Of a DNA stretch of 64,000 nt, positions 2,304 through 57,986 are shown piece by piece. Position 1 is the first letter of the stretch; each line of letters starts with the position of its first letter. Source of the stretch: a virus (lineage: Duplodnaviria; Caudoviricetes); IMG/VR virus record IMGVR_UViG_3300028833_000053; one strand, 5' to 3'. A program made the position numbers and the translations under genes. The notes under the pieces are model-generated. The model worked only from the letters and a program-made list of their open reading frames with translations, had not been told where the DNA came from and did no database searches.

Positions 2304-2359
2304 AGTCTATATCCAATTTACATTTGGTATTTACCATTCTTCGTTTCCAATATAAAGCA

Positions 2360-2392: not shown

Positions 2393-2415
2393 TTTCATTG
2401 CTGTGTTCCAATTTG

Positions 2416-2946: not shown

Positions 2947-2985
2947 AGTTAGTTTTCCTTCTTTCCTTTGATAGTTCAATTATAC

Positions 2986-3014
2986 AAAAAAGCCAGACCC
3001 CTTGGGTCTGGCTG
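2986..3014 (-). terminator. intrinsic terminator
   Basis: aaaaagccagaccc-ctt-gggtctggct; U-tract on minus strand. Confidence 0.7.
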
Positions 3015-3036
3015 GTGTGATATGTGGCGCAATCAA

Positions 3037-3558: not shown

Positions 3559-3644
3559 TTGTTTAGTTTACCTACTTCATTATACAACAATTCACTGAAA
3601 TAGTAAATAGGTAAAAGAGAATTTTCTGAAACTTTGACACGACC

Positions 3645-26248: not shown

Positions 26249-26929
26249 TCAAGTCAATATGGATTCGATGGGAGAATAACCATGATTGAATATAAATTCA
26301 TGACTGGCATTCTCCCTTCCTGTTTCAGTGGGGATATGCCAAATATACCCTTTTGCATATGAGTGTATTCCTGAAATAGGAGTATACTGAATGAAAATAT
26401 TTTTACTTGAAGCGAAAATCAAATCACTGTGAAAGACCTTGTTTCTCCTGACCCTATAACAATCAGCCGTACCCACATTGTCCAGGTATGCTATAAAAGC
26501 GTCATACATATCTTTGAATACCATATAGGCATGTGAACCATAGCAATTTGCGTTAGACAAAAGGTTATCATCAAATGGCTTGCCACACTTCAAAAATGAA
26601 TATCCGAAAATCAACAGCTTGCATCTATCGGGCATGGAGTTAAGACATTTCTCTAATTCTTGACATATGCCATTGCAAGGATAGGCATCATCTTCAAATA
26701 TGCAAACAAAAGGCAAATCCAATTGTTTGGCTCTCAAAACCAATTCCTTATGAGATGCTAAACAATTTTGGGGGCCCGTATTTTCCTACTTGCAAATTCC
26801 CTGAAACTTCTATGGAATTGGGAGTAACCTGTGCGCCTAAAACAATTTATTAAACCTGGCAAGCCTTACGTCGTCTATAGAAATTACAAATGAATTAGCC
26901 AAAAGCTGCTCAACAGTTATTTTATTCAT
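26249..26929 (-). CDS. glycosyltransferase family 25-like, 226 aa (3 TAG)
   Basis: ATG 26929; FVISID..RLARF...CLASHKELV...CIFEDDA...YGSHAYMV; AT-rich. Confidence 0.75.
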
Positions 26930-26960
26930 CAATATGCCTTTCAAATCAATTATACTTTCT

Positions 26961-31988: not shown

Positions 31989-33113
31989 TTAGACCTCGTG
32001 GGATTCGTTGAGGTTCTTGCCGAACTTCTCACGCCACTCCTTGTAGAGCGGATGGCGCATGAGGTTCATCACGGCCACGGAGGGCTTGATGCGCTCGGTG
32101 CCAACTCGGGCGGCGGTCATAGCCATCGTTGCGAACGCCGGGGGCAGACCCATCGAGATGCGGAGGAAGCCATTGACTCGGTTCGCGGTGTCCTTGTCGT
32201 CCGTACCACGCCAGAGGTGGTACACCATCGCGGAGGTGAGCGCGTACTTGAGGTCGTCGCGGGTCGGGATGACAACCTTCTTCTTGGGATCGGTCATCAT
32301 GTCAAGCACGTTGTCCATCTGAGCGGACAGCTTGTAGAACTCCATGAACTGCTGCCCAGCGGGGACACCAACCAGACCATACACGGCCTTGCGGAGCAGG
32401 GTCTCGTTCTTGAGAATCTTGCACATTTCGGAAACGCGCTCCCAAGAACGGGGGGTCGGGAAGCCACGCTCAAGGTTCTGGTCATCCACGGAGAGCAGAA
32501 GCTGCGGCTTGAAGTTGATGAAGCCAACCACGGTCGGGTGGATGTCATGCGAAACGGCCCACGTCACCCAGTCCTCGGCATTCGCCTCAATCTCAAGGTG
32601 CATCATGCGGTTCGCAAGAGCGGAGGACATCGTGGTGGAAACTGCGCGGTCGCAAGAGCGGTTGCCAGCGGCCACAATGAACCACTTGGACGGAACCTTA
32701 TAGACGCTGCCACCACCAAGCTGGCGGTCAAGGATAAGCTCGTAGGAGGCAACCTGCACGTCCTTGGGCGCGGCGCTCAGCTCGTCAAGGAAGATGATGC
32801 CACCCTTCTCGTTGTCGATGGGGAAGATGTCAGAGGGAAGCCACTGAACGTTGTGCTTCTCGGTATTGGGAACAGGGAGACCACGGATGTCAATGGACTC
32901 CATCTGGGCGAGGCGGACGTCCACGAAGCCAACGCCCATCTCCTTTGCCAGAGACTTGACGATGGTGGACTTGCCAACGCCAGGTGCGCCCCACACCATG
33001 ACGGGCGGAAGTTTGGAAGAGGTATTCTCGTCAGCGAGAATAGTCTCGATTGAGGAACGCAGGATGTCCTGCAGTTCGCTTGCGTGTACCACGTTGTGCG
33101 TGTCGATTGCCAT
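31989..33113 (-). CDS. MoxR-family AAA+ ATPase
   Basis: VMVWGAPGVGKS, DIRGLP, IIFLDEL, AAGNR, ALANRM.H, TPRSWE. Confidence 0.88.
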   Translation of the reverse strand: MAIDTHNVVHASELQDILRSSIETILADENTSSKLPPVMVWGAPGVGKSTIVKSLAKEMGVGFVDVRLAQMESIDIRGLPVPNTEKHNVQWLPSDIFPIDNEKGGIIFLDELSAAPKDVQVASYELILDRQLGGGSVYKVPSKWFIVAAGNRSCDRAVSTTMSSALANRMMHLEIEANAEDWVTWAVSHDIHPTVVGFINFKPQLLLSVDDQNLERGFPTPRSWERVSEMCKILKNETLLRKAVYGLVGVPAGQQFMEFYKLSAQMDNVLDMMTDPKKKVVIPTRDDLKYALTSAMVYHLWRGTDDKDTANRVNGFLRISMGLPPAFATMAMTAARVGTERIKPSVAVMNLMRHPLYKEWREKFGKNLNESHEV

Positions 33114-33205: not shown

Positions 33206-33279
33206 GGTTCTGAAAAATAATTAAATATTTTTATTGAATAGTTTTGGCTATAAAATACGCAAAAATGGCAATTATGCAA

Positions 33280-33346
33280 AGAAGCCGCACACCCGATTCC
33301 CTTGCTTTTGGTAGATAGAAGGAAAGAACCCTCGGATGTGCGGCTA
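33280..33346 (-). terminator. long hairpin after giant gene
   Basis: agccgcaca...tgtgcggct inverted repeat. Confidence 0.45.
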
Positions 33347-33355
33347 TTGAATCAA

Positions 33356-36300
33356 TCAATATGTGGTTTCATACACGTTGTTTATCTGTTCCTTGTCCTT
33401 GGAAATGCCAAAAAGCATCTTTGATATTCTCCATGCGCAGAACCTCTCGGGCTCGGGCAAAGAACCAATCACCTTGTACTTGTACCAAGCAATCAAATCA
33501 AGGTTGTCGTCACGTTCCTCGAAATTCTCAGCCAGATTATACCACGGGGGAATTGCATAAGCCGAACCAACACGGCAACAATATTCCCACTGAGCTTCTG
33601 TCGGCAAGTCAAAGTTTATTCCGCCAGTCACGCCAGAGCTCCACCTCTTTTTCCTCCATGTGGTTTTTGTCAATCCTTGCTTATTGTCCCTTGCATCCAT
33701 CAAGTACTGCATCAACGGACTGCCACCATACTTATCGTACTTTCCATTTGCAAATCCATTCGCCTTTGCTTCATATCCAGAAACGGAGAGTCCATCACCC
33801 AATTTATTTTCCCACCAAAGTGTATTGTAGTAATTTCCCTTTGCCCAGGTTTGATCACTCCTGTCGGGACCGCCACGACCATCACCTTCATAACCCGTGT
33901 TCACCCCGTATATTCGTGTCTGAGTTTGGACAACTACCTTGGAATTCAATATGTCCATAAAGGACATTGGCGTTGAAGGATGTTCAATCAACTGGAATTC
34001 ATCTCCATTGGCTGACATAATATAGCCCTTTGTAGTAGCCTCTGCGGGCGGTGAGGAATAAAGATCCCGGGCCGAACGCACTGCGTTATAGCTCGCATAG
34101 TAAAACGGACGTGTGTCCTCCAATGGGTTGTATATTCCCCAGTTGACCAATTTTGTTACGCGCTTTTCCTCCACTTCTGTCAATGGAACCGACCTGTATC
34201 CATTTGCGGGTGAAGAACCACCGGACGATGAATAGCCACCCTCTGAACCGGTGTCTCTCGGTGAAAGAGCAGCCAAGTCGCTGATTTGATCCTATGTCAA
34301 AATCACCTTGCCGTTCTTGTCCTTTCCAGTCTCAAGAAGGTATTTCCATTCTTCATTCTCCCACACGCAAACATACTTCCAATAGGATTTTTCCATCTTC
34401 TTGAAATTGGTGTCACCGATTGAACCCGGATTGCCTACTGCTTTCGCCAGATTCGCGCGGGCGTAACCCTTCATTAATGCCATGTCAGGAACCATGTTAT
34501 ATGTTGGGGTGTAGCCAGATTCTCCTGGCCGCTTTCCTGTTGCATCAACAATCAACTGATACGTTGTCACATAGCCAGCCTCGCCGGGCACTTTTCCATT
34601 TACATCCTCTATGAGTTCTTTAGTCATCGGAACGGCACCACCAGAATTTTTGTGGAAACCATACACGTAGCACCATTGGGCAATCGTCAGTTCAAACGGG
34701 TCAATGAAGAAGTGCTTGTTTCGGAAATACTTTGCGCGTTTCTTGTATGTGGTGACATATCCGGCGGCACCGGGTGACCTGCCACTGCTGTCTTTTCCCT
34801 TGGCAAGATCTCCAAACTTGTTTCTCTCGTATACCCAAGGTTGAGCAGCATCAGAAACATCTGGATTGTAGAAATCCTTCGCCCTTTCAATTGATGTGTA
34901 CCAAGACGGCCATTCCTTTTTGTTCACTGGAATGTTTGGATAGTTCCTTTGATATGAACCGCCGTTTCCAAGGGTGACATACTTGTAGTCGTCCCTTGCA
35001 CTGTCAACTATGGATTCAGCGTCCCTATACTTTCTCTTGTTCGGGTCGGTTATCAAGTCATAGTCGCTTGCGTGGCTTCCCATCACGAAGTTGTCGTACA
35101 TTTCACCTGAAATTTCCTCTATGCGTGAAAGGATTATCTTGGAGGTCTTGAATTCGTCATCCGTGTTGATCCTTGCGCTGTCCTTGAATTTCATCGGAAA
35201 CTTTCCAGGCTGCAACGTCAAGAGCGCCGCCGCGTCATCACTCAATCTACTGTCAATTCTCTTGTTGTATTCAGTCAAGTCAGGAAGAAGGTCTATGACG
35301 GCGTACTTGTATGAGAATTTCTTTCCGTCGGACAAATTTCCAACACCTGAACCCGACATAAAGGATTCATAGAACACCTCCTTCAATCCAGTCACGTCCA
35401 TCACGGGGATTGACTTGACAATCACGGTGTTTTCCTCGTCCTCGTAATCGGTGAGGGAACGTCCAGAAGAATTGGTCATTTCGTCAAAGACCTGATGTTG
35501 CCAACGGTATCCCATCAATATCGGCAAGGCTTTCTTGAAGTCGGTGTAGAACGTTTTCACGAAATTGACCAACTTCGTGTGCGACCATATGTCCTTCGCC
35601 TCACTGTACGTTCCAACGTTTTTATCGGATTTCGTGGAATTCGCAATGGCGATTTTCGTCAAAGCGAATTTCCAATACGGTGGATAGGCGGGGCCGGCCC
35701 ATGCGTCCGTTATTGTGGCATATGCCCCAACGTCGCCGTACCTGGTCTTGAATTCCGATGCAGGTGCGGGATTGCAAGTCAACACCTTGTTCTTCGTGGC
35801 GCAAACAGCGGCACTGGTTATCAAGCCAGAAGAGGTCTTGGCAATGTTTTCCTGATGGACTATTATCTTCATATGTCCTGTGACAACTTCCCTTTGATCC
35901 TCACCTTCTCCCTCCATATGTCTGTATGTAATGGTAATATAGTCCAACGGTTCCTTTGTCCAGGCGTATTTGCAATCTATCTCGGTTGGCGGGGAATAAT
36001 CCCTAACCTTAAGCGACCGAATCCAACTTGTGCCAGAAGTTGAGGTCGCTCCAGAACCATACACCGAAGGACTCAACGCGGAACACATCTTATTGATGAA
36101 CATTGGATAGCAAGTTCCTGCAAAATTGGATCCCGCAAGAGTCCAATCTTCGGGCCACTCGCCAGTTTCTTCGTTCTTTTTCTTCTTGTACACCACGCAC
36201 AGGCAAACGGCCATAAGCTCTATGGATTCCTCCGTCAACGTGTACTTGCCCATGCGCCTAAACGGATAATCTTCAGTTTTCTTCCTTCTGTTTTTGTCGT

Positions 36301-39300
36301 CCCACACGGTCAATGGACACAGATGCTTGTCTATGAATTCACGAGCCTTTGCCGAAAGAATGTATTTCGGTTTTTCGTTTGTGTGATCTCCTCTTCTGTT
36401 TGCCACGCCATCCTTTCCTTCAGGCAAGGTGCCGGATTTTGCATAGTCATATATGATTTTAGCCCAAGTATTCGGTATGTTGTAACTGGCGGCTGCTCGG
36501 GTCAAATCAGATTCACCACCGCTCGTCACCCAACCTTCTTCGTCAGCCTCGCCATGAGGAAACACGCTTTGCACTATGTAGTCCCCCATAAAGCCGGCGA
36601 ACTCGCCATCGTGGGCATGGTATTTCTAACGCCAACTGCCCTCGGCAAACGTCTCGTCTCCTTTCTTTAGCGTGCGGCAAGCGGGAAGACCCATAATGAA
36701 GAAATACTTGTCATAATAAGCAATCTACGTGTCGTCTTTTCCGGGGGTTGGACGGTCCTCCGCCCTTGGAATAATGACATCCTTGCTCATTGTTACTCCA
36801 TTCCAAGTACCGTCTTTTTTTCCAACAAACGATTTCCATCCGTGGCGTGTGGCAAACACCATGTTGGTGCTGGTATATGGGTTTTCAAGTCCGAATATCG
36901 TTTCGAGAATACTTGCGTCTTCTTCATTGCATACGACATTCTCTATTGCGCGGGCGTCGTCCATCTGAAGGGCGTTGTTGGACATCCTCAAGATTTTCCA
37001 TGTCAAAGGTTCACCGTCCTTGAGGTATTTGGAGAACCATCCCCTCATTTCAGAATCGTCGATTACAACCTAATCCATATCCTTGAACAAACGTGGTTCG
37101 TTGTTCATGTAGAAGGACTTGGCAACTTCAAGGGCGTTTGCCGCAGTAACTTCTCCCGTATCATACAACGGCGTTGGCGCGTTTGCATCGCTTACGAACA
37201 TGTATGAATTCACGGGTTGATCTGTCAACGCCATCGTGTTGCGCAATTGGAAATATCCAATCGTCTTCAACCAATCATAACTGACATAGTGCTTCTTGTC
37301 GATGCTGGAGTTTCCTGGCATCTGTCCACTTTCATACAAAGTTGACTTTTGTGTTTCCGTGAGAAGTTTCGTAGATTCCATTCCGTCAAACGGATATGTT
37401 TCCTTTTGCATATCGGCGGAAGACAAGGATCCAGAAACCTTCAAGTCATCCGTGACAACACTTCCTGCGCTCCATTTGACCGTTACGGACAGCTTATGTA
37501 TTTCCTTCTCTATTTCATTGAACTTTCCAGTATTTCCATCAAGCAAGGACGACACGGCGGTCATGGCATTATACTCTTCAGACCCAGAATCCCTCGGGTT
37601 CAATCCAACATTATAGCAATAAGTCTCAAAGGTGTCCTTCAATGATGCGGCATTTCCACGCATCATTTGCAGGCAATACGGGTCTGGCGGAACCAAATCT
37701 CCCCCGAAAACGGACGTGCCACCATAGAATTGAAGCGAGGTCTTACCCGGTATTCCAGGACTGACAAGAATTTCCTTTGACTGCACACCGCCAGCTTCAG
37801 AATAGGTGGTGTCCATTTCATTGTCATATTCATTTGCAAACACGAACACCAACCTCGGAACTTTCTTTCTGAAAAGATAGCCCAATCCCCGGTGGTTTGG
37901 ATGTCCATAGAAATATCCCTTTCTTATCAACTTGGACATCATGCGGCAAGTAGGTTCGCAACCGGCCCACCAGTTAGAGAGAACACCCTTGTCACTGACG
38001 ATAAACGGAAATTCAAAGTTTTCTACACCTTCATCCGTTGGGTCATAGGTGAAGAACGGAACTTCCTTGCTGAACGCCTCTTGGCCGTCTTGCGCTTCCA
38101 CTGTCCACTTGTCCGTCGTTCCATTCCACGTCATCCCCTGATAGCTGGCGAAGTATCTCTGCCAATCTCCAAATTCGCCAGTTCCCTGCTTGCCCTCCAA
38201 TTCATCCTGCAATGGAACGTCTGACTCTCCGTCAACATGTACACCAGCCATTTGCTTGGTTATTCCGCCAAAAGTCAACGGCATCGGGCGAAGTTCACTG
38301 TCAACTTCAGTACCGCCCTTAATCCAAGCTGGAACACCACAGAACAAGTTGAACTTCTTTGACAAGGTATAGTAGTAAACCGTAACGTCCGCGTCCTATG
38401 GATATTCAGGTGGCGGGTCTTTCTTGTTGTGAACCAAAATACCTTGCTCTCCAACATAATATGTATGGGTTCCTGAAACCTCAAGGTTGTACACATATCC
38501 CAATCTCAACCCAACATCAATGCTGTCTATGGTATGCCAAGTGCCATCAGGACGCAACAACTTATCTGAAACCTTCAAATCCTGGGCCGTAACCCAATCT
38601 GTTTTTTCATCCCTGTTGACGTAGAACGGATGAACTCCGGTTGCCTCGATAGTTTCTTCTCCGACTTTTATGGTGAAAATCTCCCTGACAAGCAAGTGAC
38701 GCATTGTCTTCACCACCTTGCAGTATTGATTTTTGCCGGAAACTTCATCATAGGAAAGAACCGTGTCACCCTCTTCAACCTTGTCAATGTCCTTCCGTCC
38801 ATCAAGCATTATGACCTTCGTTCCAGCAACAAAACAGTCGCCGCCTTTGTTGTGAACCAACGCGCCACGTTCACCGACATAGTACGTATGCGTCCCTGAA
38901 ACTTCAAGGTTGTACACATATCCCAACTTCAACGCAATGTCAATGTTGTCTATGGTGTCCCATGTCCCATTGGGGCGCAGCAGCATATCTGAAACCAACA
39001 AATCCTGTGCTTTTACCCATGACACTTCCCCACCCCTATTGACATAAAATGGATGTACTCCCGTTGCCTCAATTGCCTCATCGCCGATTCTTATGGTGAA
39101 AATCTCCCTGACAAGCAAATGCCTCAACGTTTTCACCACCCGACAGTATTCGTTTTTACCCGTGGTTTCATTATAGGAAAGAACAAGTTCACCTTCCTCA
39201 ATCTTGTCAATGTCCTTTTCCGTGCCATCCGCCATAAGAACTTTCGTGCCCGCGACAAAACAATCCGTCGAGCCCTTATTGTGTGCAAGAATATGTTTTC

Positions 39301-42300
39301 TTCCGACATAATAGTTGTGGTTCTTCGTGACTTCAATGTTGAACACGCCGGTTGACAACTTCTGCGATGCAATCTTGGAAATGCGGTGCAAACTTCTGTC
39401 ATGGAACATCACAAGGTCTCCGACAACAATCTCGTCCGCCCTAATCCAGGATTTCTTGTCCTTGCGCATGATGTAGAACCTGTGGTTTCCAGTGACATCC
39501 AATTCGTCGCCCTCGATGGTGAATGTATAGATGTCCTCGTCAACATCGTGCGTCATCGTCTGGGCAACTTCGCTTATTTCATTCTTTTCCTCTTCTTCGT
39601 TATACGAAACAACTTGGTCTCCGACGGAAACATCCTCTATGTTCTTCAAGGAACCGTCGGACATCTCCACCTTTGTTCCGGCAACGAAACACGAATAACC
39701 GCCTGAACCACCCGTGTCGCTTCCTCTTGATTTCAGGGGTTCCTGACTCTGAATCTCCCCATCGAACCCAAAATCTCCTTCATCGCCATATTCAACCTGT
39801 ATGTCATCTTCCTTGTATTCACCAGACCACTTGTCAAGTACGTTGGACTTGTAAGACCACTCGGATTCAAGGTTCTCAACCAAGCTCCCGTCTATGGACT
39901 TGGCTGAAGAACCACCTCCCTCGCTGCCCATCATCCAGCAATTTTCATAGTAGTTCTGGAAGAACGTCTCAAACCCACTTGGCTTTCCATCCGCCCCCGT
40001 GCCCGAACCGAATGCCCCGGTTGTCCAATGCTTTTTCGATTCCGCACAACCCCATCCGTAAGGTCGGCCTTCACCATTACCTCCTCCCCAGTTTGTATAT
40101 GGCGCATTATCAGCGCCAGAAAGGTAATAGTGGTACGTTGTGCTGCCATATCCCCTTTTCCAGTTGTAGTAGCTGGGCATTCCATCGTAACTGCCATACT
40201 TTATCTGCGTATATTCAGCACACTTATGTGCGCACATGAACCTGAGCGTCGGACCAAGGAACAACGCAGAACCAACATGGCAAATGTCATATGTTCCCGT
40301 TTCACTATATCCCGCAAACATGCGCACTATGTCGGTTGCGGATTCAATCATCCTTGTTATCTGGTTGTTCTGTGAAGCGGAAGCGTCAAAGAGGAAGAAC
40401 AAGTCAACTGGACTTGTGTGGAACTCAAACGACGAACCCTCGTTTTCCGCACTGAATATCATGGAAGGTCTGAAACCAACGTTCGCCTGCGTTGCATATT
40501 TGGACTTGAACCTGTCAGGAGCAAGTTCCTCACGGGAACTGCATATCACCTTTCTGCAAAGTTGATCGAACGCTCCACCCTTGATTACCTTCTTCGTATG
40601 CTCACCGACAGTGACAATCGGGTTGACTTCTGGATTACCCTCTGTGCTGCCCGGACCACTTTCCTTCTTGATGGTGGCGTTCCAATCGTCCCTCACCCAT
40701 TCCCAAACGTTTCCAAGCATGTCGTACATCACCAATTTGGTTGACGGGGACAACAACTTCCCTACACGGTGGATGAAAAGCTCGTTGTAAGACCATTCGT
40801 ATCTCCAATAGAACTGGGGAACAACTTGGAACGTTATGGACTTCATGTCCTTCACGGTAAGGTCGTGATGGGACTTGTTCATACCTTCCATTGAAGTATA
40901 GACTGGGAACAATTGCTTGTTCAACACGGTCTTGCTGATTTTGCGAATCCACTTTTGCCTGCTGTCGTTCAAGTAGTATTCAGACTCGGGAAACTCCTAA
41001 TCCAAATCCAATGTCTTGGGGAATTGAACTGTGGTGTCGGACAACAATTGCTGATAAACAAGACTGTCTCCAATTATGTAGTTGGCGGGAACATCCTCAA
41101 ACTTGAATCCCTGGTATATCCTTGCTCCCTCTGGAACAATGTCGTCCTCTTCATCTTCTATGTACGCCTTGTAGCCCTGATCATAGGGGTCGCCCAGCGG
41201 AACCTTCAACTCTCTCGGCCTCATACCATCGTGGTCGTCGTCAACGCCATCCAGGGTAGTGACTCTGAAATTGTCGTGGCTGTTCAATATCCTCTCATAC
41301 GTCAAACTGGCCCGCGCCATTTCATAGTCGATGGCATGCCATTTCACATGAGCCAAATCTTCGTCAAATTCCTCCTTCGGCCTCATCTTCCATGCGGTAT
41401 ACTTGGCTATAAGCTCGACCCTTCTTGCCTCTATCTCCTCGTCAGTTGGCTGAGGTATGTTTCCTGTGAACATGACGAAAGAAGCCTCGTGTTCCCTTGC
41501 GTTGCGTTCAAGGACGTGGGAAATCTCAATGAAGGAGTTCGTCCAGTGGACGTAGCAAGGCGTTCCATAATTCGTGGAAGAGCCATCAACGTCGCCAAAC
41601 GTGTTCCTTCCATTTGCCATTATGTTGCCTTTCCACTTGTTCTGCTTGAACGTCCTGTATATGCTTCGGACAATCTTCTTGGTGTACTTCTCCAAGGCTT
41701 GCCACGCTGCAAGATCGCTTCCCAACTCGCGGCGCTTGTTCTTGAAATACTTTATGTAGGTATAATGGCGTACCACGTTCCACAAGTTCCAGGTCATCGG
41801 CCTTTCATGTATGGAATCAAGAACGTCCGTGTTCATGTTCTCTGGAATCTGTTTTTTCCTGAAGTCACCGTCTCCGTGGCATTGCTCACCAAAATAGTAT
41901 TTGTCCGCCGTTGGGTCTTCGTGTTGTGGCGTACCAAAGGCGTTGCTCATGTGGTGTATCTTCCACTTCTCGTTCGTGCCGGCGCAATTGGGGTCAAACA
42001 CGCCCTTGTAGCAGTTTCCAGAATTGTCGGTTGTCAACACCGTGCCGCCATAGTCGCGTTTTGCAAAGTCGGTGCCAATGGTGTGCTGCACGGCGTGCCA
42101 CTTGTGCTCCGACAGGAACGTAGGTGTCCTTCTTTCCTCCTTCGTGTCGGAATCAACCTCAACATACTCGTCTTGTTTTTCGTGCGCGTTGGAATAGCAA
42201 TAGCCACCCTCTTCATAGTTGAGCTTCGCACTGCTGATTCTTCCATAGCAGTCAACTGTCGGTCCGTTGTTCTAGTCGCCTCTGTTCTCCCACCAAAACA

Positions 42301-45300
42301 CGTAGGGCATAATGTCCTCAAGTTCAACCACCTGGTTCAAGTCCTCCAACGGAGAAACCATCGTAATGTAGAACCACACGGAATCTTCGTCGAAATCGTC
42401 TATTGCGTGGGCTTGACTGAGGTTGTACTTGTACTTCAACCTGTCGGGACTTGCCTTTCGTGCTTCGTCATATACGTACTTGTTCACGGTCAAGTCAACG
42501 AATGAACCGCCCTTGTCGTAATCGTCAACCCAATCCTGGTATGGGAACCTGAATTCACCAGAACCACCACTTCCAAAATCGTATTGAGTGCCATACATTC
42601 CATTGAACTCACCGTCCTTGACCGTAAGTTGCTTCAACGTCTGATATGGAATGAGCTTGGTGAACCTCTCGGCCAGCGTCTTGAGGTTGTTCTCGTTGTG
42701 GTGTCTCTTCGCCAAGAACTCGCAAGCGCGAACAATGTCGCCGAACGCAGGATCTTCCGTGCGTCCCTCATTTGACTGCTCGAATATGATTCCATTTATG
42801 TGATCGGAACTCTTCGGCACCTTGTCCGTCTGATAGGTGTCAAGCATGAAGCTGTACAACTCGCTGTTCTGCTTTATGTTGAAGAACGGAATCAAGAAGT
42901 ACGTCCAATCCCTTTGGTTGTAGAGATAGTACCAAGTGCTTTTTATGTTGTCAACCAAAAAGCCGCTCTTGTCATCCTCGTCCTCGGGATTCAACTTCAC
43001 CCATTTCTCGTAAACGCTTCTCTATGTATCGTCAAACACGTCAAGATGGAAGTCGCGGTCCATCTAAAGGAAGTTGTAGCCGCCAATTCTGTTGTACTTG
43101 TCATAGGACGACGGAACTATTATGGAGTCCTCGTTGTACTCCATGTTCACCATCGTCTTGGAAGGAATGGTACACCATCCAAAGACGCCATATCGGTTTT
43201 CAACGTCCGCCTGATACTTCGTGTCAGCCGCCATGTCGCAATCGTTGAATATGTCCCTTACCTTCGGCATTATGATTGGACGGTACTTCTTCACAATGGA
43301 AGTGAATGTCTGCAACTAATCCTGACCCCTGACTATCTCGTTGTAGGTTCCGTCGTTCTTGTGTCCCAACCTATGACGCAGGAAATCGTTTGCGTCAACC
43401 GGGGACTGGATGGTGGAGTTTTCGTAGAGACAAAGCGGACGTATGTCATAGTAGTTCTGCTGATCGTCCAAAGTCGGCGTCACGTTCGTGGAAATGTTGT
43501 CGTCTATGGTCTTGTTCCTGTCGGTTGTGTCGTTCTTCCTCTTCTGGACGCTTTGAAGGGTTTTCCTGTAGTCATAGTAGTAGTAAAGATCGTTATAGTG
43601 TACTGCGTTCGTGTTGTATTCACCAATCAACTCGCGGTTCACTGGAGTTATTCTCCAATTCAACGCCCGTGTCTTGTCTATCCTGCAAACAAGCCTGCCA
43701 TCTTCCACTTGGTTTGCCGTGTGGAAGTTGGAGAACTTGAATTCAATTGCGGGTTCAAAGGAAATCCACTTCACGTCCCCATTGAAGCACACCACCTGGT
43801 AATTTGAAGGGGTTCCGCACACAACATCGCCTGAATTAGTGCAGATTATTTCATCCAACGCCTCGTCGGCCTCACCCAATATCTCTCCATACCACCAATC
43901 TGACTTCTCGGGCACGTCTATCTTGAGGAAATACTCCTTGTGCGCTATGTCTATGTTTATCTTGAACAACGCCTTGAGCAAGTTGACAACATCAACTATT
44001 TCAAGCATCGTCAAGGGCATGAAGTCGTTTGCACTTGACTTCAATCTGTTCAACAAGCTGAGGAACGGACAAGCGGAGAATTCATCAAATCGGGATTCAT
44101 CATACTCCCTGGGATTCAACCCAATCAACGTGCAATAGCACTTACCCTCTGAATTCACCTTGTCTATGTCTGGATGACCAGACCAATACTGGCAAGTTCC
44201 CAATGTATGATCTGGTTCATCTTGAACACGGGGGTCAACCAAGTACGAACTAACGCCATCCAATTTGTCCTGTTCGTCACCATTCAAAGGAACAACAACC
44301 TTGTCGTATACTGCAACCAAAACGGATTCCGAAAGTATGGTCATGGAGGACGTTATGTTTCCACTTACCAAACTCCAATACCTGAACACATACTGGGTGC
44401 AAGAATCATCGCCATCCTTTACATTCGTTTCCAAATGCAGGTGGAATGAAGGTATGTGCTGATTCTAAACAACATCCTGCCACTTCTCGGCCTCGTGTCC
44501 ATCCTAATCTATGTACTTGAACGTCACGCGGAAGGCAGTTTCGCCACCTGCATGAATCTTCGCGGTGATATACCTTTGATATTGCTCAGCGTCGGACTTT
44601 CCATCGCAGATGATGTACTTGCTCAAGTTCTTACCTTCGTCAAAACCTTGGTTGTCACCTTCCGCAGACACGCCGGTGTTCGCCAATGGCTCGGTTCTGT
44701 CATCGCAAATTATGGCACCGCCACGTCCCTCGATGCCCGGAAGCACATCACCTTCCAAACTGCTCCAACCAAGAAACTTGAGGTTTGGATTAGAAAGTTT
44801 GGGGTTAAACGGAGGATATACCACCGTGTTCACTTCCTTGTCAATCAAGACATCGCAATAAGGCTCGTCACCAACCTTGAACGTCAATATGTCATAACCC
44901 AACGTCCAATTAGCCTCCAACACCACAATAGGCGCAGAATCCACCCATTGCTGTTGAATTCCAAACTGATACTCGTCATAGCATATGCCATAGGAACCGC
45001 CAATTGAATATTGCCAATTGGCGAACTTGTGCGTCTGCCAACGTTCACCCGTGGCGTTCAACCCAGTTGGAGAATCCAAAGGATAGTCGAATTCCCAGAA
45101 TCCAGTTGGGGAATCATGGTATTCAAAGCGAAGTTTGTCCCCAGATGGTCCCGTGAAAGTGCATTTTGGCAAATTCACAAGTTCGTTGGCGCGGACCGTA
45201 ATCGGCCTCATTTCGCCCGAACCACCATCGCCGGGTCTGAACTTCACGATATATTGCGTGTTCCAAACTGCATAAAGGCTCAATGTGTCGGAATCATGGA

Positions 45301-47836
45301 AGTTCCACTTCGTCAACACGTCATCCAAGTCAATGGACGGCACCTGGGCAAACCTGTCCGTGGAAAAACCAAGCAGTTCATATTGCACCGTCAATCTTGA
45401 AGATGCGTCCAAAGTCTCGTCCGTGTCCGTAAACGTTGGCTTGTTGACCAACTTCACCTCGGAAAGATCCAATTGGAAATCATCACGTTCCGCTTCAAAA
45501 TGAATTGACTGTGGTCTGTTCAACAAGTCGCGCTTGAATGAAGATCCAACCGGCACCTCGACAACCCCACCAGTCCATTGCATGTAGCTGTTCAAGTTGA
45601 AGTTGATGTATATGTCACGGTGACGGTATCCAACATCCGCCGCGGCACGGCTATTCAACATTCCCTTTACGGGAACCGGTTCGCTTTCTTCAAAGGAAGG
45701 TGCTTCTTCAACCACAATCTCCTTGGGTGCGGAATCGCTCTCCCGGCACAATGGGCAAAGATCCCAATTCTTCAACAACCAACCCTGTCCCGTTTTCGCC
45801 AAGATTTGAAGAAATTGCTCCAATATCTTGCGTTCATCCGTGTCTAGTCCAGAAGTGCCAGGATTCCTCCAATATTGCTCCACTTTCGCCAAATACCTCA
45901 GGTAACCATTTGGATCATCCATATCGTTTTCGTCATAGTACACAAAGGCATTGGGGTTTTGGGAATGCTTCAAGGTGTCGGTTGTAAGGTACTTGTAGCC
46001 ACTGTCGATGTTGATATGGCGTTGAAACACCTCTCCGGTTGTTGACTTGAACTGCAAATACTTGTAGAGACGCGAAAACACTCGCTCAATCACGATTGCA
46101 CATTGGGACTGGGAATAGTCATTGACGTTTGCCGGGTTGAATTCCTCAATCGCGTTCATGGAAGAGTTGTATATGTTGAATATCTTTTCGTTCTTTATGA
46201 CTTCAAATGCGTCCGCAAGGGCGTAGTAGCCCTGTTCCAACATCTTGTCCCTGATGTCGGAAACGTCCTTAACTGCCTCACCAAATATGGGTTTCACGTA
46301 TTGACTACCAACCAGGTCATTATCCGTCAATTCGTGATATTCAAAAGCGGACATCACGTCATAGGCGCAACCCAAGTGAAGATTGGTGTACTTGGTGTAT
46401 ACGGACCTATGGGATTCCTGATATACCTTTCCTGGTTGGTAGAACCAGTCATAGTCGTTGTCCGAATCGGCCTTGTGCGTAACCTCTGCAAGGGAAACAA
46501 ATCTCCTTACGATGTCATTCATCTTCGTCAACACGCCACGAGGAAGAACGCAATCCTTTCTGGTGTTGGCTATCGCAAGGCAATTGTCATTGTATTCCTG
46601 CCACATCACGTCGTTCCATATAAAGGCGTACTTTACAAGATTGCCCAGCTCGTCTGGAACTCCATCACCTATGGTCTCATCGTCAATCCACTCCAAAGTG
46701 GCGGATGGCAAGGAATCCTTGTATATGCGTCCATTGGTGGCATTTTCAACATCGTCGCTTTCAACATACTCACGTCCAGATTCATCCGTGAAAACCTGCT
46801 TCCTTGACATCGGGTTCATGTTGAAATACTTGACATCAAAAGGATACTTCGCGTCTATGCTCTTGTAGAGAAGGTTGTACCAAATGTCCAAGGCAAGAAT
46901 GCCCTCCCACCTGCGGTGTGGGTGCTTGAAGCCATATATCTCATGGCACATTCTTATGTTGGAAAGCTTGGCGAACAACTTGGCAATGTGTTCACAAAAG
47001 ACATATATGTAGGACTTGCTGTCAGTCAATGCAACGGCGTTTCTGAAAGAAGTCTTTGCATCGTGAATGTCCTTTTCAAGATTCCTCAACTCAAACATCG
47101 TTGAGGACTGTCCATGTCTGTGAATGTCAACCTGCTGTTTCTTGTCAATTCCAGTGTAGTCCTCGTTGTACTTCCCATAGTTGTAGTCAGTCAAGAACTC
47201 ATCCGCATATATGCCAATCTTGGGGTCGGTTGTGGCATAGTCAACAAAGGGCGTGTATGTGAAGGAATCCAGGAAAAACTCACCATTCTCAAAATCCTCC
47301 TTCACCCTGTCGTAATCCACCTGACGGAAACCATCATCAACCATAGTGAAGCCGGTTATGCCATAGGTGTTCTGATAGGATTCCAGTTTCAGGGATTCCC
47401 CACTTCTGTACTTGAATCTGAACAAATCACGGAAATAGTTCTGTGAATCATCGCCATCAAGTTTCATTTGCTTTGAAAAGTCCTGAAGCAAAATCTTCTC
47501 AATGAACTCAAATGGCGTGATGAGCCTGTCTATCATGTTTGGTGGATAGTACGGGTTGTTGTTTATGGGCAATTCCGGCGTGGATGACGTTTCATCGCAA
47601 TGGACAAGATAGGAGGTTCCCTCATATGCGGTCTCCCTGTACTTCGGACCAAGTTCAAGGAGTTGTGTTACACGGTGGTTCCGATTACGGTCCCCGTTTT
47701 CGCCATTTGACCTGTCACCATTTACGACATCATCCTGTGGACGCATCTCCTTGGAAATGTAGTCATATATCTGTCCTGAGTTTGGTGTTTCGCCAAGTAT
47801 AAGTTTCTTAAGATCTGTTACGTAAGAATTGCTCAT
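33356..47836 (-). CDS. giant ~4,826-aa virion-associated protein: InlB-B-like repeats, permuted FGE/C-lectin halves, vWA motif, 3 tandem Hint domains (12 in-frame TAG)
   Basis: ten ORF-track pieces from 44504-47860 down to 33356-34276 are all in one frame and separated only by TAG; ends TGA; late motif at 47880. Confidence 0.85.
38426..39691 (-). repeat. three tandem Hint/intein-like domains (39278-39691, 38849-39262, 38426-38836)
   Basis: each CFVAGT...TG[N/V]H...V[F/Y]N[I/L]EV..H.YYV....HN, 137-138 aa; copies 2 and 3 are similar at DNA level. Confidence 0.9.
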
Positions 47837-47879
47837 TGTTCTTTCTTCTCTATCTACCAATCTTCAACTTTCGTAGAAC

Positions 47880-47923
47880 TATTTACCATAAGCAAGGGAA
47901 ATTATATGCCACTATTGTAAATA
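47880..47923. promoter_or_regulatory. divergent pair of late promoters (GTAAATA), representative of ~19 copies
   Basis: TATTTAC at 47880 (minus) and GTAAATA at 47917 (plus) serve the two divergent genes. Confidence 0.75.
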
Positions 47924-49256: not shown

Positions 49257-50009
49257 TTATGAAAGTTCCCGTAAGATATTTGTCATAGTGCAATTGGTTG
49301 TGCAAAACAACTTGTTCACAGACCTTATGGACTTGTACTCTTTTGGTGTCCAAGAGTTGTGCAACATATATATTGGTAGTTTTGGCATTTCATCCAATGT
49401 CAAATTCTTGTTGAAATACAAGTCCACATACTTTTCATGCCTTTGCAGTTTGGTTCCAGAACCTTCCGCATAGCAAATTGTGTTTGGATGACGCTAGAAC
49501 TGTTCAGGATGTTTCTTGATATATGGAACATACATATTGCATCCAAAAGCCAGGGAAGTCGTATCCTCTCTCTTCTCCGTAACAAGAACCTTCTTCACTT
49601 GCAGATCTTTGTAAAACCGGAGAAACTCCGTATTTGGTTTTGATTTCAAATACCCATTACTGCTTCCAAACATTTCAAGCCCAACACCATCGTCCATTTC
49701 TGCATCCAGAAACCTCTCCTCGAATTCGGATGATGGGATTATCGTGTCGCAATCCAACCACACACCGCCATTGTTCAACAAAACGTCACATCTAATCACA
49801 TCCGAGATTTTGGCAAGGGAAAATATCTTGGAACGTGTCAACTTCTCCCACATTTCCTTGTCCTATGGCAACGTTGACCAATCCGACATGTTATCATATG
49901 TGAGAAGAACAATATCGTGATGGTGAATGTTCTTGTGCCAAGTCTGAATGCAAGCCTGTATATATGCGGGAATCTTATCCACGTTATGCCAGAAGTGAAA
50001 TATCTTCAT
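49257..50009 (-). CDS. capsular-polysaccharide-synthesis / GT32 DXD glycosyltransferase, 250 aa (2 TAG)
   Basis: IFHFW...IPAYIQACIQTW...SDVIRCDVLLNNGGVWLDCD...MLHNSWTP. Confidence 0.75.
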
Positions 50010-50021
50010 TGTCAAACTCCT

Positions 50022-51161
50022 TCAATTCATGTTATTTCCCAAAGCACTGTACTCTTCGAGTCCAAGTATGGAATTGACAATGTTTTGACACGGTGTTTTC
50101 CCATTGGGAAACTCACTGCAATATTTGGCAATATACTCCTTACGCAAACCGGAATTTTGATCTTTTCCATCAAGAACGTCTCTAACAAACCTATCAACGG
50201 TGTCTCCATTTTGCGGCCAAACAATCTCATGGCAGTTGATTGCATCCTTGCCCATTTGAGACCAAATCTTCGGGTCCATGTTCACGTCATTTGCAACGTA
50301 GCACACTGGCTTGTCCATGTAGAGATATTCACAACGGAACGAGCCGCAATCATGTATCATCGCGTCGGAGTGCTTGAACCAATCAACATGGTCCGCGTCG
50401 CAAACTATCAAGCATTTCTCGGAAAGTTTGTCCAAAATGTTCGCAGCCTTTTCAAATATTTTAGTGTCCTTCACACGCTTCAAATTGGATTTCCATTGAT
50501 AGTACAAATTTGGGTGTGGTCTTACAACAAACTCCACCTCATTCTTGTACTTATCCACCATCTATATCAAGTCGTCCCCAATTTCAAGAAAATTGGTCTT
50601 GTTGCCATACTTCGTATACGTGTTCTCCTGCAACGTCCAATGCGGGCAAATCAAAATCCTTTTCTTTCCCGTTGTTTGCCAAGGATCATTGAATTGCTCT
50701 TTTGGTTTCCTCAATACCTCTGCCCAAGGATGTCCAGTAAGAACGTGATAGGGCTTTTGTATGAGTTCAGGCAAGTCGCAAAACACCAAGCAGGCCTGGG
50801 CGTTGTATATCTGATTGACATGAATATGCCATCCAAGGGAATAGCGTATGAACATCATCTTGCGCTCAATAACCAGTTCATCATAGAGGTCTGGATCATT
50901 GAGGTGTGAATACTGGGCATACAACAAAGGAGGAAATACCAGATCAACGTCATAGATTGCATTGGAATATTCTTCTCTGTCTTTTGTTTCAATGACCTTA
51001 AACCTTTTGTCCGACATTATATAATTCTCAAACGGGCCCGTCTTGCACTTGCACTTGTACCCATCTATGTTGCTGTTCATGTCGGATGGAAAAAGGACGG
51101 TTATAGGCTCGCCGTCCCTGTACTTTTTCCTCAATTGCTCTAGTTTTTGATACCTTTTCAT
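50022..51161 (-). CDS. CDP-glycerol:glycerophosphotransferase (TagF-like) family protein, 379 aa (1 TAG)
   Basis: ILICPHWT, VRPHPNL, SDAMIHDCGSFRCEYLYMDKPV; two ORFs abut at TAG 50562. Confidence 0.7.
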
Positions 51162-51206
51162 TTCACTTCCGCCCAATGTATTTACCAAAAGCCAGAAAAT
51201 TCCACA

Positions 51207-53968: not shown

Positions 53969-56314
53969 TCAATATCTGCTGAACACGTAACCATCTTCCT
54001 CGAAGTAGTCGTTTATGAAAAGATCGCGTCCAAAAGACTCATAGTCAAAGTAGTTTCTCGCCGTGTCGGGACCCAACTGGTCAACGCCACCAAGACTGTC
54101 AACGTAATCTTCCGCAACTTGCCTGTCGGACTCGTACTCTCCCTGGTCATAGCCATCGTTGTCGTAGTAGTGGTCTGGGTCTTCAGGCTCGCCCTCGGAG
54201 TCCGTGTTGTCGGGGTCTCCGATGTGGAAATCATACATCAAGTCACGTCCAAAGGAATCGTAGTCAAAGTACATGTCAAGGTTCTCCTGACCAAGACTGT
54301 CCCAACCCATGCTGTCAACAATGTGGTAGGCGAAATCCTCTGCGGAGTTAAACTGTCCCTGATACGCATCGTGGAAATCGTCAATGCTGTCATTGTCAGT
54401 GTAGCTGACATAGGCGGCATAGGCATCCTTCTCCGAATCGTCCATCATGTAGTATTCGTTGATTTTGTCAAACTCCTCCTCGGTTGGCAAGCCACCTTCG
54501 TGATACCACTTCTCGGGGAAGTTCTCATAGTCCTGAACCATGAACTCTGGGTCTTTCTCGTCGGAATGAAGTTCACGGCAAGCATCCACGAATTCCTCGT
54601 AGGTGTTGTAGTCGGAAAGGGTTATCCACTTTCCGTCAATGGAACCGTTGTTGTACTTGGCGTATGTTCCAACGTAGATTTTGGGTTCTCCCAAGTCAAC
54701 GTCACCATCGGCTTCCTTCACGACCTTCTTGTTTGACTCGCCATAGCAGTCCAACGCCTGATAAACCTTGTCAAGCTGGCGTTGCATCCAAATCTTGTCG
54801 ATGCGGTCGCCGCTCTTTCCATATTGGACGCAAGCATCACCATAGTCGTTGATGATGTTCTTGACGTCCGCCGTTCCTTCCTTCACAATCTTCTTCATCG
54901 TGTTCTTCCTCGTAGATTCATTCAATTTGTTAAACTCCGCATAGAACTTGCCCAACCTGTTGCGCCACTTGATAGCCACCTTGTCGTCAGTCATTGATGT
55001 TGCTCCGGCGCGAACGAGAGAATACAACGTGTCAAGATCCTTCTTGCCATTGATTTCAAGTTCCCAGTTCTTGTCGGAGGAATCATAGAACTCCTCCAAC
55101 TTGTCAACCCACTTTTGGGCATCGTCAAACTTCAAGCTGGCAAGGTGAATCAAACCATAAAGCTCGTCAAGTTCCTTGCGGCTCCTGATTTCCAGATTCC
55201 ACTTCATTCCCTTCTCAAGCTCTTCCCAGTTCGTGGATTCCTCCATTCTTCCATTGTAGGTTGAAACCCAATTCTCGAAATCATCCAGCAACTTGCCAAT
55301 CAAAAGCTCTTCGTCCCTGCTGCAGGTCTTGTTCTTCCAATCATGCTCGATGTCAAACAAACGGTCGCGCAATTCCCTCAACTCAAGGTCGCCCTGTTTC
55401 TCTGAAACGCCATGATGCTTGACATCGCGGATTACCCTCTTCTTGGCGGCTTCAATAGCCCTCTTGAACTTCTGAAGTTCGGACGTCTCCTTCACAACTT
55501 TCTTCATATTGGTTTTCCTCGTGGATTCCTTTAGTCCGGCAAAAAGGGATTCTATCTTTTCCAGTTCATCCGGTGTTGCATCCAACCTTCCATATTCCAT
55601 GTCAACGATGATTCCGGTCTCGCATTCACCCTTCGTCTTGTACCTGTTTCCTGGTATGTACTTTCCGGTTTCGTTGTCAAAACCCACCCACCAGCTCTTT
55701 CCGTCCAATGCGGTTCTCTGCTTTGCTGAATACCTTTTGGTTATGTCCTTCAAGGGCAACATTGACTCGTTCACAATATCTTCTTCTTCTTCCAAAGACA
55801 AAAGTTCGGGCGCCGTTTGCCTGAGATATTCCCTGTCCTCGTCTGTGAACGACCCCATGCTGGAAAGATAATCCTGAACGGCCCAAACCTTGTCCTCGGA
55901 TTCATCCCATGACGGGTTCACTCCACTTGGCTTGAACTCCTTTTCCTTTTCAGCCAAAAACGTTTCCAAGTTGCCAATGGATTCCTGCACATATCTTGGG
56001 CCGTCATCGTCAATGACGTGGTCTTCCTCTTCATGATAGCCAACGTCCTTGAATTTCCTTGCGTCAATCGCAGCAAGGAACTCAGGAATTTGATCCTTTG
56101 ACATGAAATCCTCATCGTACAGCTCATATTCCTTGAGTTCATAGTTCACCCTTCCGATTGGCGCACCTCTGTAGTAGATTTCATATCCATGGTCATAGCC
56201 ACCAAGAGCCATTTCCCAGTTTCCGCATCGGCCACGCTCGCCGTTGTCGTCAATCTTATCCATTACCTTCGCAAGGGCGGAGAAATTAAGTTTGGATTCA
56301 TTCATCTTTTTCAT
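53969..56314 (-). CDS. multi-module polyprotein with C-terminal ArdA anti-restriction domain
   Basis: C-terminal ~240 aa: PKIYVGTYAKYNNGSIDGKWITL...DPEFMVQDYENFP...YFDYESFGRDL...DGYVF matches ArdA; repeated xxES linkers. Confidence 0.85.
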   Translation of the reverse strand: MKKMNESKLNFSALAKVMDKIDDNGERGRCGNWEMALGGYDHGYEIYYRGAPIGRVNYELKEYELYDEDFMSKDQIPEFLAAIDARKFKDVGYHEEEDHVIDDDGPRYVQESIGNLETFLAEKEKEFKPSGVNPSWDESEDKVWAVQDYLSSMGSFTDEDREYLRQTAPELLSLEEEEDIVNESMLPLKDITKRYSAKQRTALDGKSWWVGFDNETGKYIPGNRYKTKGECETGIIVDMEYGRLDATPDELEKIESLFAGLKESTRKTNMKKVVKETSELQKFKRAIEAAKKRVIRDVKHHGVSEKQGDLELRELRDRLFDIEHDWKNKTCSRDEELLIGKLLDDFENWVSTYNGRMEESTNWEELEKGMKWNLEIRSRKELDELYGLIHLASLKFDDAQKWVDKLEEFYDSSDKNWELEINGKKDLDTLYSLVRAGATSMTDDKVAIKWRNRLGKFYAEFNKLNESTRKNTMKKIVKEGTADVKNIINDYGDACVQYGKSGDRIDKIWMQRQLDKVYQALDCYGESNKKVVKEADGDVDLGEPKIYVGTYAKYNNGSIDGKWITLSDYNTYEEFVDACRELHSDEKDPEFMVQDYENFPEKWYHEGGLPTEEEFDKINEYYMMDDSEKDAYAAYVSYTDNDSIDDFHDAYQGQFNSAEDFAYHIVDSMGWDSLGQENLDMYFDYDSFGRDLMYDFHIGDPDNTDSEGEPEDPDHYYDNDGYDQGEYESDRQVAEDYVDSLGGVDQLGPDTARNYFDYESFGRDLFINDYFEEDGYVFSRY

Positions 56315-57185: not shown

Positions 57186-57986
57186 TTATTTACTCCCTTT
57201 ATAGTTTTTATGATTCTTATGGTTTTTATGCCAAGACTCCTTCATCTTTCGTTTGGTTTCTTCTGATAAATGTTTACCGTACATTGGATTGTTTTGTCCT
57301 TTCCTTTCATTAGACAACTTTAATTTTGCTTCATCCGATAAATGTTTTCCCTTACTCCAAGTATTCTTTCCTTTAAGTCTCTAGGATATTTTTATTTTTG
57401 ACTCTTCTGAATGGTGTTTTCCACCAAATCCAGGTTTTCTCCCCTTTAATGATTTTGCACGTTTCTATATTGTTTCTGGTGAAGGATGTGAAAATTGATA
57501 TGGTAATGGTCTCCCTATATTAGCCTATCTTATTTTCTCTATGTGTTCCTATGATAATTTTCTCCCTTTATGAGACATGGACAATTTTTTGCGATGTTCT
57601 TCTGAAAATTTTTTACCTTTATGTGCCAATGATAATTTCAATTTGGTTTCATCAGACAAATGTTTTCCTTTATTTAATTCTGAAACTTTCATTCTGACAA
57701 ATTCATAAAGTCTTGAATTGAATCTGAATCCTCTATATTGATTTTTATTACTGGTTCTCATCATAGTTATTGCCGTCCACATTCCTTGCGTATTATAAAT
57801 CTTGGCTAATAATAAATGACAAATATAATGTTCTCTAGCAGTTAGAAAAACCAAATTAGAAGACTCATTAGAACCTCCTTCTGATTTTGGTATTATATGA
57901 TGACTTTCGCAATAACAATCATCACGATTAATTGGATTCTTCCGACGCTTTTCAATAAGCGCATTGTAAACCTTTAAGTAGTTCAT
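57186..57986 (-). mobile_element. free-standing HNH homing endonuclease with NUMOD3 repeats, 266 aa (4 TAG)
   Basis: ESHHIIPKSEGGSNESSNLVFLTAREHYICHLLL; repeated KGKHLSxExK.K.S; strongly AT-rich. Confidence 0.85.

Follow-up and report, generated by a model that had tools for sequence, protein, structure and literature searches.

Does a stretch of viral DNA that is interrupted by 12 TAG codons encode a series of small proteins or one very large protein, and if there is just one, what might it do? The question is raised by positions 33,356 to 47,836 of a 64,000-nucleotide window (the whole stretch of DNA that was analysed) from the Caudoviricetes virus record IMGVR_UViG_3300028833_000053. With the standard genetic code, this region breaks up into ten open reading frames (ORFs) of at least 80 amino acids. 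We argue that it is a single minus-strand gene in a phage that reads TAG as glutamine, and that the product joins two modules, of which the second contains a circularly permuted lectin-like domain, a split von Willebrand factor A (vWA) domain, and optional inserts that resemble bacterial intein-like (BIL) domains. Jointly, these features are well supported, and we would be surprised if they turned out to be wrong. The role of the protein is less certain. We put the probability at about 0.55 that it is a late, virion-associated adhesion or host-binding component that works with a MoxR-type ATPase, judging from the types of its modules, a promoter motif, and the pairing of the two genes.

The gene has the following extent:

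33356..47836, minus strand: giant gene, with ATG at 47836 and TGA at 33358-33356; 4,826 codons, ~551 kDa, with TAG read as Gln

The minus-strand frame from 33356 to 47860 is open for 4,834 codons: it contains 12 TAGs, no TAA, and a TGA only at its end. The remaining two frames have 236 and 289 stops over the same stretch, and given the frequencies of TAA and TGA in those two frames, the chance of a frame that is this open is about 1e-88 to 1e-123. The earliest ATG is at 47836, and the N-termini of the orthologs agree with a start there.

Relatives of the gene are also read through. The C-terminal part has relatives at four loci on viral contigs, and two of these loci are on contigs of 414 and 418 kb. 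In the loci L002, L003, and L004, the whole gene is one read-through ORF, with 14 TAGs in 3,797 codons, 20 in 3,888 codons, and 16 in 4,060 codons, respectively. In alignments of about 3,500 residues, the full-length orthologs share about 45% identity. Conservation runs on across the TAGs, and only 1 of 61 TAG columns is common to independent genomes. Furthermore, relatives have standard-code ORFs that run without a break through 10 of the window's 12 TAG sites, where the sense codons are mostly Gln. From the sequence, it seems implausible that translation restarts after each TAG. At 10 of the 12 sites there is no Shine-Dalgarno-like sequence, and after TAG 1863, the nearest possible start is 61 codons on, so that a restart there would cost 21 residues that are invariant in the family. 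The initial annotation of the window, which was made from the sequence without database searches, had joined ten fragments across 12 TAGs into one ORF ending in TGA, and the open frame and the read-through orthologs bear this out. It had also named homologs that are split at these TAGs, or restarts led by ribosome-binding sites, as the observations that would speak against a single gene; we found neither pattern.

The same annotation went too far in stating that standard annotation misses the gene entirely. Public protein sets contain unnamed fragments, among them the gene's 364- and 765-amino-acid pieces at 100% identity. They also contain over 160 relatives of the core region (described below), again unnamed, of 125-2,076 amino acids and from contigs of up to ~430 kb. 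This spread of lengths is what gene calling with code 11 would give for genes whose TAG positions differ between genomes. We did not find any homologs of full length (2,658-8,460 amino acids). Comparisons of the flanking DNA (by megablast) and of the core (by tblastn) to GenBank phages gave no match, 50,697 phage records contain no homolog of the gene, and a search of viral contigs with the N-terminal piece did not confirm anything. Outside of the Hint and FGE stretches (see below), the giant protein is blank in sequence searches of Pfam, PHROGs, NCBIfam, and PDB.

How does the phage read TAG? Its genome is complete and T4-like: it is a single contig of 433,895 bp with a 127-bp terminal repeat, 46.6% GC, and 36 tRNA genes, and it includes a T4 gp23-type capsid gene. 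If TAG is a sense codon, then the share of the genome that is covered by ORFs of at least 150 amino acids rises from 0.80 to 0.91. To identify the residue, standard-code orthologs from the databases were aligned with the TAG position masked in the query. At two conserved TAG sites, the residue in the orthologs is Gln 50 times out of 54 and 67 times out of 68. Over all TAG sites, Gln accounts for 47% of the aligned residues (the background is 3.3%), and five TAG-containing alignment columns are all Gln. The phage also has a tRNA(CUA) gene, at c[410487,410576], that starts with U1:A72, like both of the phage's tRNA-Gln genes and unlike its Ser, Leu, and Thr genes. This start is typical of tRNA-Gln, and we predict that the tRNA is charged with Gln. 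Judging from these alignments, TAG encodes Gln.

Reading TAG as a sense codon also gives giant ORFs of 3,592, 3,368, and 2,152 codons elsewhere in the genome, which are probably further genes hidden by recoding. In the window, a homing-endonuclease gene (57186-57986, minus strand; phrog_655, E = 7e-53) has four in-frame TAGs. Many of the 36 tRNA genes are long for their type (e.g., 83-91 nt for Thr, 89 nt for Arg, 88 nt for Asn, and 90 nt for the CUA tRNA; C1:245657-323588), which suggests extra arms or introns, and one of the tRNA calls has an odd two-base anticodon.

Four regions of the protein do not belong to any known domain family that we could recognise:

45671..47836, minus strand: conserved region at the N-terminus (aa 9-730), which is the first part of the ancient N-module; no known family
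43379..45670, minus strand: variable beta-rich region (aa 731-1494) with short 'IVC' Cys repeats; low conservation
41441..43378, minus strand: most conserved core (aa 1495-2140), without a relative in Pfam, PHROGs, or PDB
35219..37660, minus strand: weakly conserved region (aa ~3401-4214), no known family

The core is 57-67% identical to the window protein among 28 relatives and 46% identical in one divergent relative. An exhaustive profile search with the core, across 1.84 billion representatives, found only 79 proteins, and just five of these are long (1,891-2,704 amino acids). The three long distant relatives that we tested are colinear with the window protein over residues ~100-2135 only, and one distant relative lies on a 232-kb contig. 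We believe that the relative at locus L014 uses the standard code because two genes there end in TAG. The C-terminal half of the protein has no trace in the distant relatives. Thus the giant protein has two parts: the N-module (aa ~1-2135) is an old module from jumbo phages and, in those with the standard code, also exists by itself as proteins of 1,900-2,700 amino acids, and the C-module (aa ~2300-4834) is specific to a clade of phages of roughly 400-437 kb.

We considered whether the C-module is a separate neighbouring gene in the distant relatives, and rejected this idea: the 2,185-amino-acid neighbour in L014 is unrelated, and a hidden Markov model (HMM) of the C-terminal half has no match there. 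This locus (L014:853-15283) has two giant genes (2,185 and 2,499 amino acids) with a small gene on the opposite strand between them, and only the second giant gene is related to the window protein. One distant relative has two CBM_5_12 modules where the window protein has its variable region; beyond these, PHROGs and Pfam gave nothing for the distant relatives. In the variable region itself, the number of 'IVC'-type Cys repeats (e.g., xxPIVCxD; window ~44500-44800, aa ~1050-1100) varies among the orthologs, including those from L002-L004.

The domain order that the initial annotation gave, from N to C, is right apart from the Flg_new/InlB-B-like repeats that it placed at ~44600-45350. The HMM has no match in the gene, and a comparison with the phage's own repeats by hhalign gave a probability of 0.2%. 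The Flg_new HMM (PF09479) has 15 matches in other genes of the genome and none in the giant gene. Flg_new arrays are confirmed in three other phage genes (C1:346764-352990, C1:8566-13245, and C1:248166-248273; E down to 5e-15), which are candidate surface or adhesion proteins.

In the C-module, a vWA domain appears in two parts, with a linker in between:

40181..40414, minus strand: N-terminal part of the vWA fold (aa ~2483-2560), with DxSxS at aa 2492-2496 (window 40373-40387)
39692..40180, minus strand: Gly-rich variable linker inside the vWA span (aa 2561-2723); shortened to a poly-Gly run in relatives without Hint domains
37661..38353, minus strand: C-terminal part of the vWA fold (aa ~3170-3400), with conserved FCGVPAW and LVFVFxNExDN blocks

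The MIDAS (metal ion-dependent adhesion site) motif DASAS, as claimed for this region, is present at aa 2492-2496 and is conserved in relatives. Four full-length homologs all share D2492, S2494, and S2496; in an alignment with 17 rows, D2492 and S2494 are invariant and S2496 is replaced by Thr in two rows. AlphaFold2 modelled the segment of a compact ortholog that contains the FGE C-half and the vWA domain with a mean pLDDT (predicted local distance difference test) of 44, and of 65-84 around the motif; only the vWA part of this model is interpretable. When Foldseek was run with the vWA model, the top matches were nearly all vWA or I-domains, if weak ones (E 0.02-0.5, ~60 residues), and nothing in PDB reached E ≤ 0.001. 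VIA, an aligner that is independent of Foldseek, also found mostly vWA domains among its top 50 (Z 5.7-7.8, 98-128 residues aligned), with NorD, BatB, and Mfa5 among the matches. Its alignments cover model residues 172-443, which lie on both sides of the linker. A vWA fold that is interrupted by a long insertion is thus moderately well supported by these models.

The insertion includes three Hint domains, all of which had been proposed initially and have profile matches:

39278..39691, minus strand: Hint / type-A BIL-like domain 1 (aa 2724-2861), with Cys1, TGNH, terminal HN, and Lys at +1
38849..39262, minus strand: Hint / BIL-like domain 2 (aa 2867-3004), with Cys1, TGVH, HN, and Lys at +1
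38426..38836, minus strand: Hint / BIL-like domain 3 (aa 3009-3145), with Cys1, TGVH, HN, and Lys at +1

The PT-HINT score is 156 bits, and Cys1, the block-B TxxH, and the His-Asn are intact in all three copies. The copies are 137-138 amino acids long, lack an endonuclease, and are separated by 4-5 residues. Hint 2 and Hint 3 are 76% identical, and Hint 1 is 38% identical to both. Among the relatives that span the site, ten have a poly-Gly run only, P0043 has one Hint, and the window protein has three, always at the same point. Canonical inteins have a nucleophile (Cys, Ser, or Thr) at +1; all three copies, as well as the Hint of P0043, have Lys instead. For type-A BILs, the main outcome is cleavage at both ends, and ligation is possible in the absence of a +1 nucleophile (PMC4031507). 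By their motifs, the Hints are type-A BIL-like under the published definition, and they are optional (0, 1, or 3 copies) elements in a poly-Gly loop inside the vWA domain.

The split vWA domain is in turn enclosed by the halves of another domain, which is related to the formylglycine-generating enzyme (FGE):

40451..40873, minus strand: C-terminal half of an FGE-sulfatase / C-type-lectin fold (aa ~2330-2470), with the GNVWEW motif
33359..35218, minus strand: N-terminal half of the FGE fold, with large insertions (aa ~4215-4834)

PF03781 matches the protein with 48.8 bits (the cut-off is 23.3), in two stretches. The match in the middle of the protein (aa 2376-2464) corresponds to profile positions 176-252 of 255, and the match near the C-terminus (aa 4738-4778), ~2,270 residues after the C-half, corresponds to positions 110-138. 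The best-matching PDB profiles (PorK/GldK lipoproteins and FGE) cover both stretches, also in swapped order, with the N-half equivalent to FGE residues ~140-163. In other words, this is not a contiguous N-to-C domain: the order is swapped in all of the relatives that we examined, and in all of them the GNVWEW half precedes the vWA domain. Both halves are found in this permuted order on four standard-code ORFs. Furthermore, 22 of 23 aligned sequences stop 2-11 residues from NNVYE (the other has an extension of ~40 amino acids), and this end of the protein is the point at which the C-half should begin. Both halves had been proposed initially. The Pfam match at aa 2376-2464 confirms the C-half, and Pfam, PDB profiles, and the docking of an ortholog's halves agree on an N-half at the C-terminus of the protein. 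The C-half is among the most conserved parts of the protein. We do not think that the domain is an FGE enzyme, because family members do not consistently have the catalytic Cys pair: the window protein has C-x4-C, and relatives have one Cys or none at those columns. Four relatives (P0240, P0147, P0155, and P0157) run 41-85 residues past the usual NNVYE end, and two of these extensions look Flg_new-like (P0240 by a precomputed PF09479 match, P0147 by eye).

For the docking, we used the halves of a standard-code ortholog (P0100), with alignments made from database rows only. In calibration, 58 of 80 solved complexes passed the docking mark, as did 2 of 110 mismatched pairs. The two halves of P0100 passed, with an ipSAE of 0.89-0.90 over three runs (the best of three controls reached 0.00) and ~490 contacts, at least 85% of which agreed between runs. 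The C-half had a pLDDT of 73-77 with its true partner and 27 with an unrelated partner; for the N-half these values were 79-80 and 57-59. That the C-half is disordered in the single-chain model agrees with the docking result. Such a pass indicates likeness to an intact FGE domain and is not proof of binding. On the basis of these models, we predict that the two FGE halves assemble into one domain, which would close a loop of ~2,350 residues that contains the vWA domain.

The giant gene is followed by a gene for an ATPase:

31989..33113, minus strand: AAA_5/AAA_3 (MoxR / midasin-type) ATPase, 374 aa, TAG-free, downstream of the giant gene

This ATPase gene follows the giant gene in four of four loci, and it is 80-86% identical between relatives, versus ~45% for the giant protein. 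Its nearest solved relatives are the AAA modules of midasin (E = 1.7e-12). There is no ATPase gene beside the gene in three loci of distant relatives that lack the C-module, and for L014 this was confirmed at the DNA level. [quoted passage not shown] In the phage studied here, the adjacent ATPase might handle the MIDAS domain during assembly or arming. On the 232-kb contig of the P0283 relative, DUF2828 and DUF7788, a pair that we take to be TROVE/vWA-like, are both present in the gene that lies directly upstream of the distant homolog.

The gene also has recognisable expression signals at both ends:

47880..47886, minus strand: GTAAATA element (GGTAAATAG) that resembles a late promoter, 44 nt before the ATG
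33276..33345, minus strand: terminator-like hairpin and U-rich tract, directly after the stop codon

A late promoter at 47880 had been proposed, and the motif is indeed present there and enriched upstream of genes across the genome. It occurs at most 80 nt upstream of 66 predicted genes, versus 4.4 expected (a 15-fold enrichment), mostly 30-55 nt before the start. TAG codons are present in 62% of the genes with GTAAATA, versus 36% of the genes without it. Two of three orthologs (those in L002 and L004) have the motif upstream as well. The literature ties recoded codons to late genes. By analogy, given this published link and the T4-like character of the phage, we infer that the gene is of the late type. 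The terminator hairpin has a folding energy of -32.4 kcal/mol (z = -5.06), and none of 200 shuffled sequences folds as well.

What does the protein do? Its recognisable modules are of the adhesion or ligand-binding type (i.e., the non-catalytic FGE/lectin domain and the vWA domain with its MIDAS motif), and relatives add CBM5/12 and Flg_new. We propose that the giant protein would be made late and would be a virion-associated adhesion or host-binding component. The association with the virion or the tail is suggested by the late-type promoter motif, the TAG content, and the types of modules.

Several points weigh against this reading or against the domain assignments behind it. More than half of the giant protein has no recognisable fold, and the AlphaFold2 model of the core (from 28 sequences) had a pLDDT of 40 and was unusable. 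The vWA assignment relies on a low-confidence model (mean pLDDT 44) and on middling Z scores, and VWA_2, which is one of several vWA models, has no match in the gene at E ≤ 10. The docking result was transferred from an ortholog rather than obtained with the window's own sequence, and the pass may reflect the memory of intact FGE domains, because FGE is a well-known fold. That the Hint domains are active is judged from their motifs only. The neighbourhood of the gene is a mixture of TerL, DNA-metabolism genes, and glycosyltransferases, and the gp23-type capsid gene is ~90 kb away. Finally, homologs of the ATPase are present in phage G and in PA5oct without an evident vWA neighbour (the record of the PA5oct homolog bears the note 'ESI-MS/MS').

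The alternative that survives best is that the protein is an intracellular factor for assembly or remodelling, that is, an unpackaged MIDAS adaptor or scaffold that presents a substrate (e.g., the capsid, the portal, or a host complex) to the ATPase. According to passages in PMC3893208 and PMC7911831, vWA-MIDAS proteins that are encoded beside MoxR ATPases usually serve as adaptors for the ATPase, which is chaperone-like. Also, the gene adjoins the terminase and DNA-metabolism genes rather than tail genes, and the giant protein has no signal peptide or recognisable tail-fibre fold. On the other hand, a size of 551 kDa and the extracellular-type modules in relatives (CBM5/12 and Flg_new) would suit a surface protein better, and the N-module occurs without the ATPase or the vWA domain in distant phages. 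We view an intracellular factor as possible but on the unlikely side.

Another alternative, which the initial annotation favoured, is a true self-processing polyprotein, in which cleavage by the Hint domains frees independent functional proteins. There are three intact Hints between an N-terminal part of ~313 kDa and a C-terminal part of ~190 kDa, and PT-HINT domains release C-terminal modules in polymorphic toxins. However, of the 12 site-spanning relatives, ten have a poly-Gly linker and no Hint, and the Hint site is inside the vWA fold and is flanked by FGE halves that are predicted to need each other for folding. We do not see support for a polyprotein, because cleavage would cut a loop within a domain instead of freeing independent products. 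Nor did we detect a toxin domain after the Hints: no toxin family matches, and this C-terminal part is conserved in the Hint-less relatives and forms the C-terminal part of the vWA domain and the N-half of the FGE domain. A polyprotein is improbable.

If we return to the virion-associated adhesin, then the Hints would excise themselves, mostly by cleavage and perhaps partly by splicing, which would leave chains of ~313 and ~190 kDa. These chains would be expected to stay together because the vWA and FGE domains each draw segments from both of them. If so, then an element without the need for ligation could be tolerated at the Hint site. We can imagine that the permuted lectin domain and the split vWA domain act as a topological clasp, which holds the two chains interlocked after the BIL-like domains are excised, and that the ATPase assembles or arms this giant virion adhesin through its MIDAS domain. 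This is a tentative idea, and we doubt that all of it is right. If it were, the phage would have its own equivalent of midasin, acting in trans, and of the ATPase/vWA pair of ATV.

Could the protein be the target of a diversity-generating retroelement (DGR)? Folds of the FGE/C-type-lectin kind are typical scaffolds for the variable proteins of DGRs, and the protein has an FGE-type fold whose catalytic residues are missing, but no part of the gene has a template-like second copy in the rest of the 434-kb genome (the sole repeat is Hint 2 versus Hint 3), and the FGE C-half is among the most conserved parts of the protein instead of being hypervariable, so this is very improbable. As for the idea that the TAGs are real stops, which would make the region a row of small genes or a decayed pseudogene, it is true that standard-code gene callers fragment the region and that public databases store the fragments, but comparative sequence data already refute this: besides the 4,833 codons without TAA or TGA, the tRNA(CUA), and the gain in long-ORF coverage from 0.80 to 0.91, the orthologs have TAGs at different positions with conserved sequence across them, and at 10 of the 12 sites, standard-code orthologs continue through sense codons, most of which encode Gln.

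Two other features of the surroundings may be of interest. Glycosyltransferase-like genes flank the region (window 49257-51188 and 26249-26944, both on the minus strand; Caps_synth/Gly_transf_sug, Glyphos_transf, and GT25), and these may relate to the glycosylation of surfaces or of DNA. Also, a 781-amino-acid ORF (window 53969-56314, minus strand) has a C-terminal part that matches anti-restriction (ArdA-like) PHROGs.

Our results imply that public databases contain a conserved family of proteins of 3,800-4,800 amino acids, which is found across a whole clade of ~400-437-kb phages, in no form other than unnamed pieces of 44-2,076 residues. The family is fragmented because gene callers stop at TAG. 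Over most of its length, the family has no relatives in Pfam, PHROGs, or GenBank phages, and it represents uncharted protein space. It also provides a clean example from nature of a lectin domain that is circularly permuted, has its halves far apart, and is predicted to fold only once they come together, and of intein-like elements that reside in a loop at which ligation may not be needed. If the protein is a host-binding component of the virion, then it would be an entry point for identifying which hosts these uncultured huge phages infect and which receptors they use.

How does this system compare to those that are already known? As in the code 15 phages of the gut and rumen (e.g., crAss-like and Lak phages), TAG encodes Gln, the phage carries a suppressor tRNA, and recoded codons are found in late-type genes; unlike those phages, the clade is T4-like (with a gp23 capsid), with genomes of ~400-437 kb and 47% GC. 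As in the known MoxR/vWA pairs (NorQ/NorD, CbbQ/CbbO, RavA/ViaA, midasin in cis, and ATV p618/p892), the ATPase gene adjoins a gene for a protein with vWA-DxSxS, and the vWA domain of NorD and BatB are among the fold matches of the vWA domain in the window. Unlike in those pairs, the vWA domain is embedded in a protein of 4,826 amino acids, is interrupted by a linker and Hints, and is enclosed by a split lectin domain. The Hints themselves resemble type-A BIL and PT-HINT domains (PMC4031507) in their size of 137-138 amino acids, in having Cys1, TxxH, and His-Asn, and in lacking an endonuclease and a +1 nucleophile. They differ from the usual BIL and PT-HINT domains in being in tandem, in a phage gene, inside a vWA loop, and optional among orthologs, and they differ from those of polymorphic toxins in not being followed by a C-terminal toxin. 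Similarly, the protein shares the above-cut-off match to PF03781 and the GNVWEW and LPTEAQWEY motifs with proteins of the FGE/PorK/GldK/PvdO fold, but unlike in these proteins, the domain is circularly permuted and is split by ~1,750 residues that include the vWA domain, and its N-half has large insertions. Recoded hidden genes, MoxR/vWA pairs, BIL domains, and lectin folds were each known already; their combination here is new.

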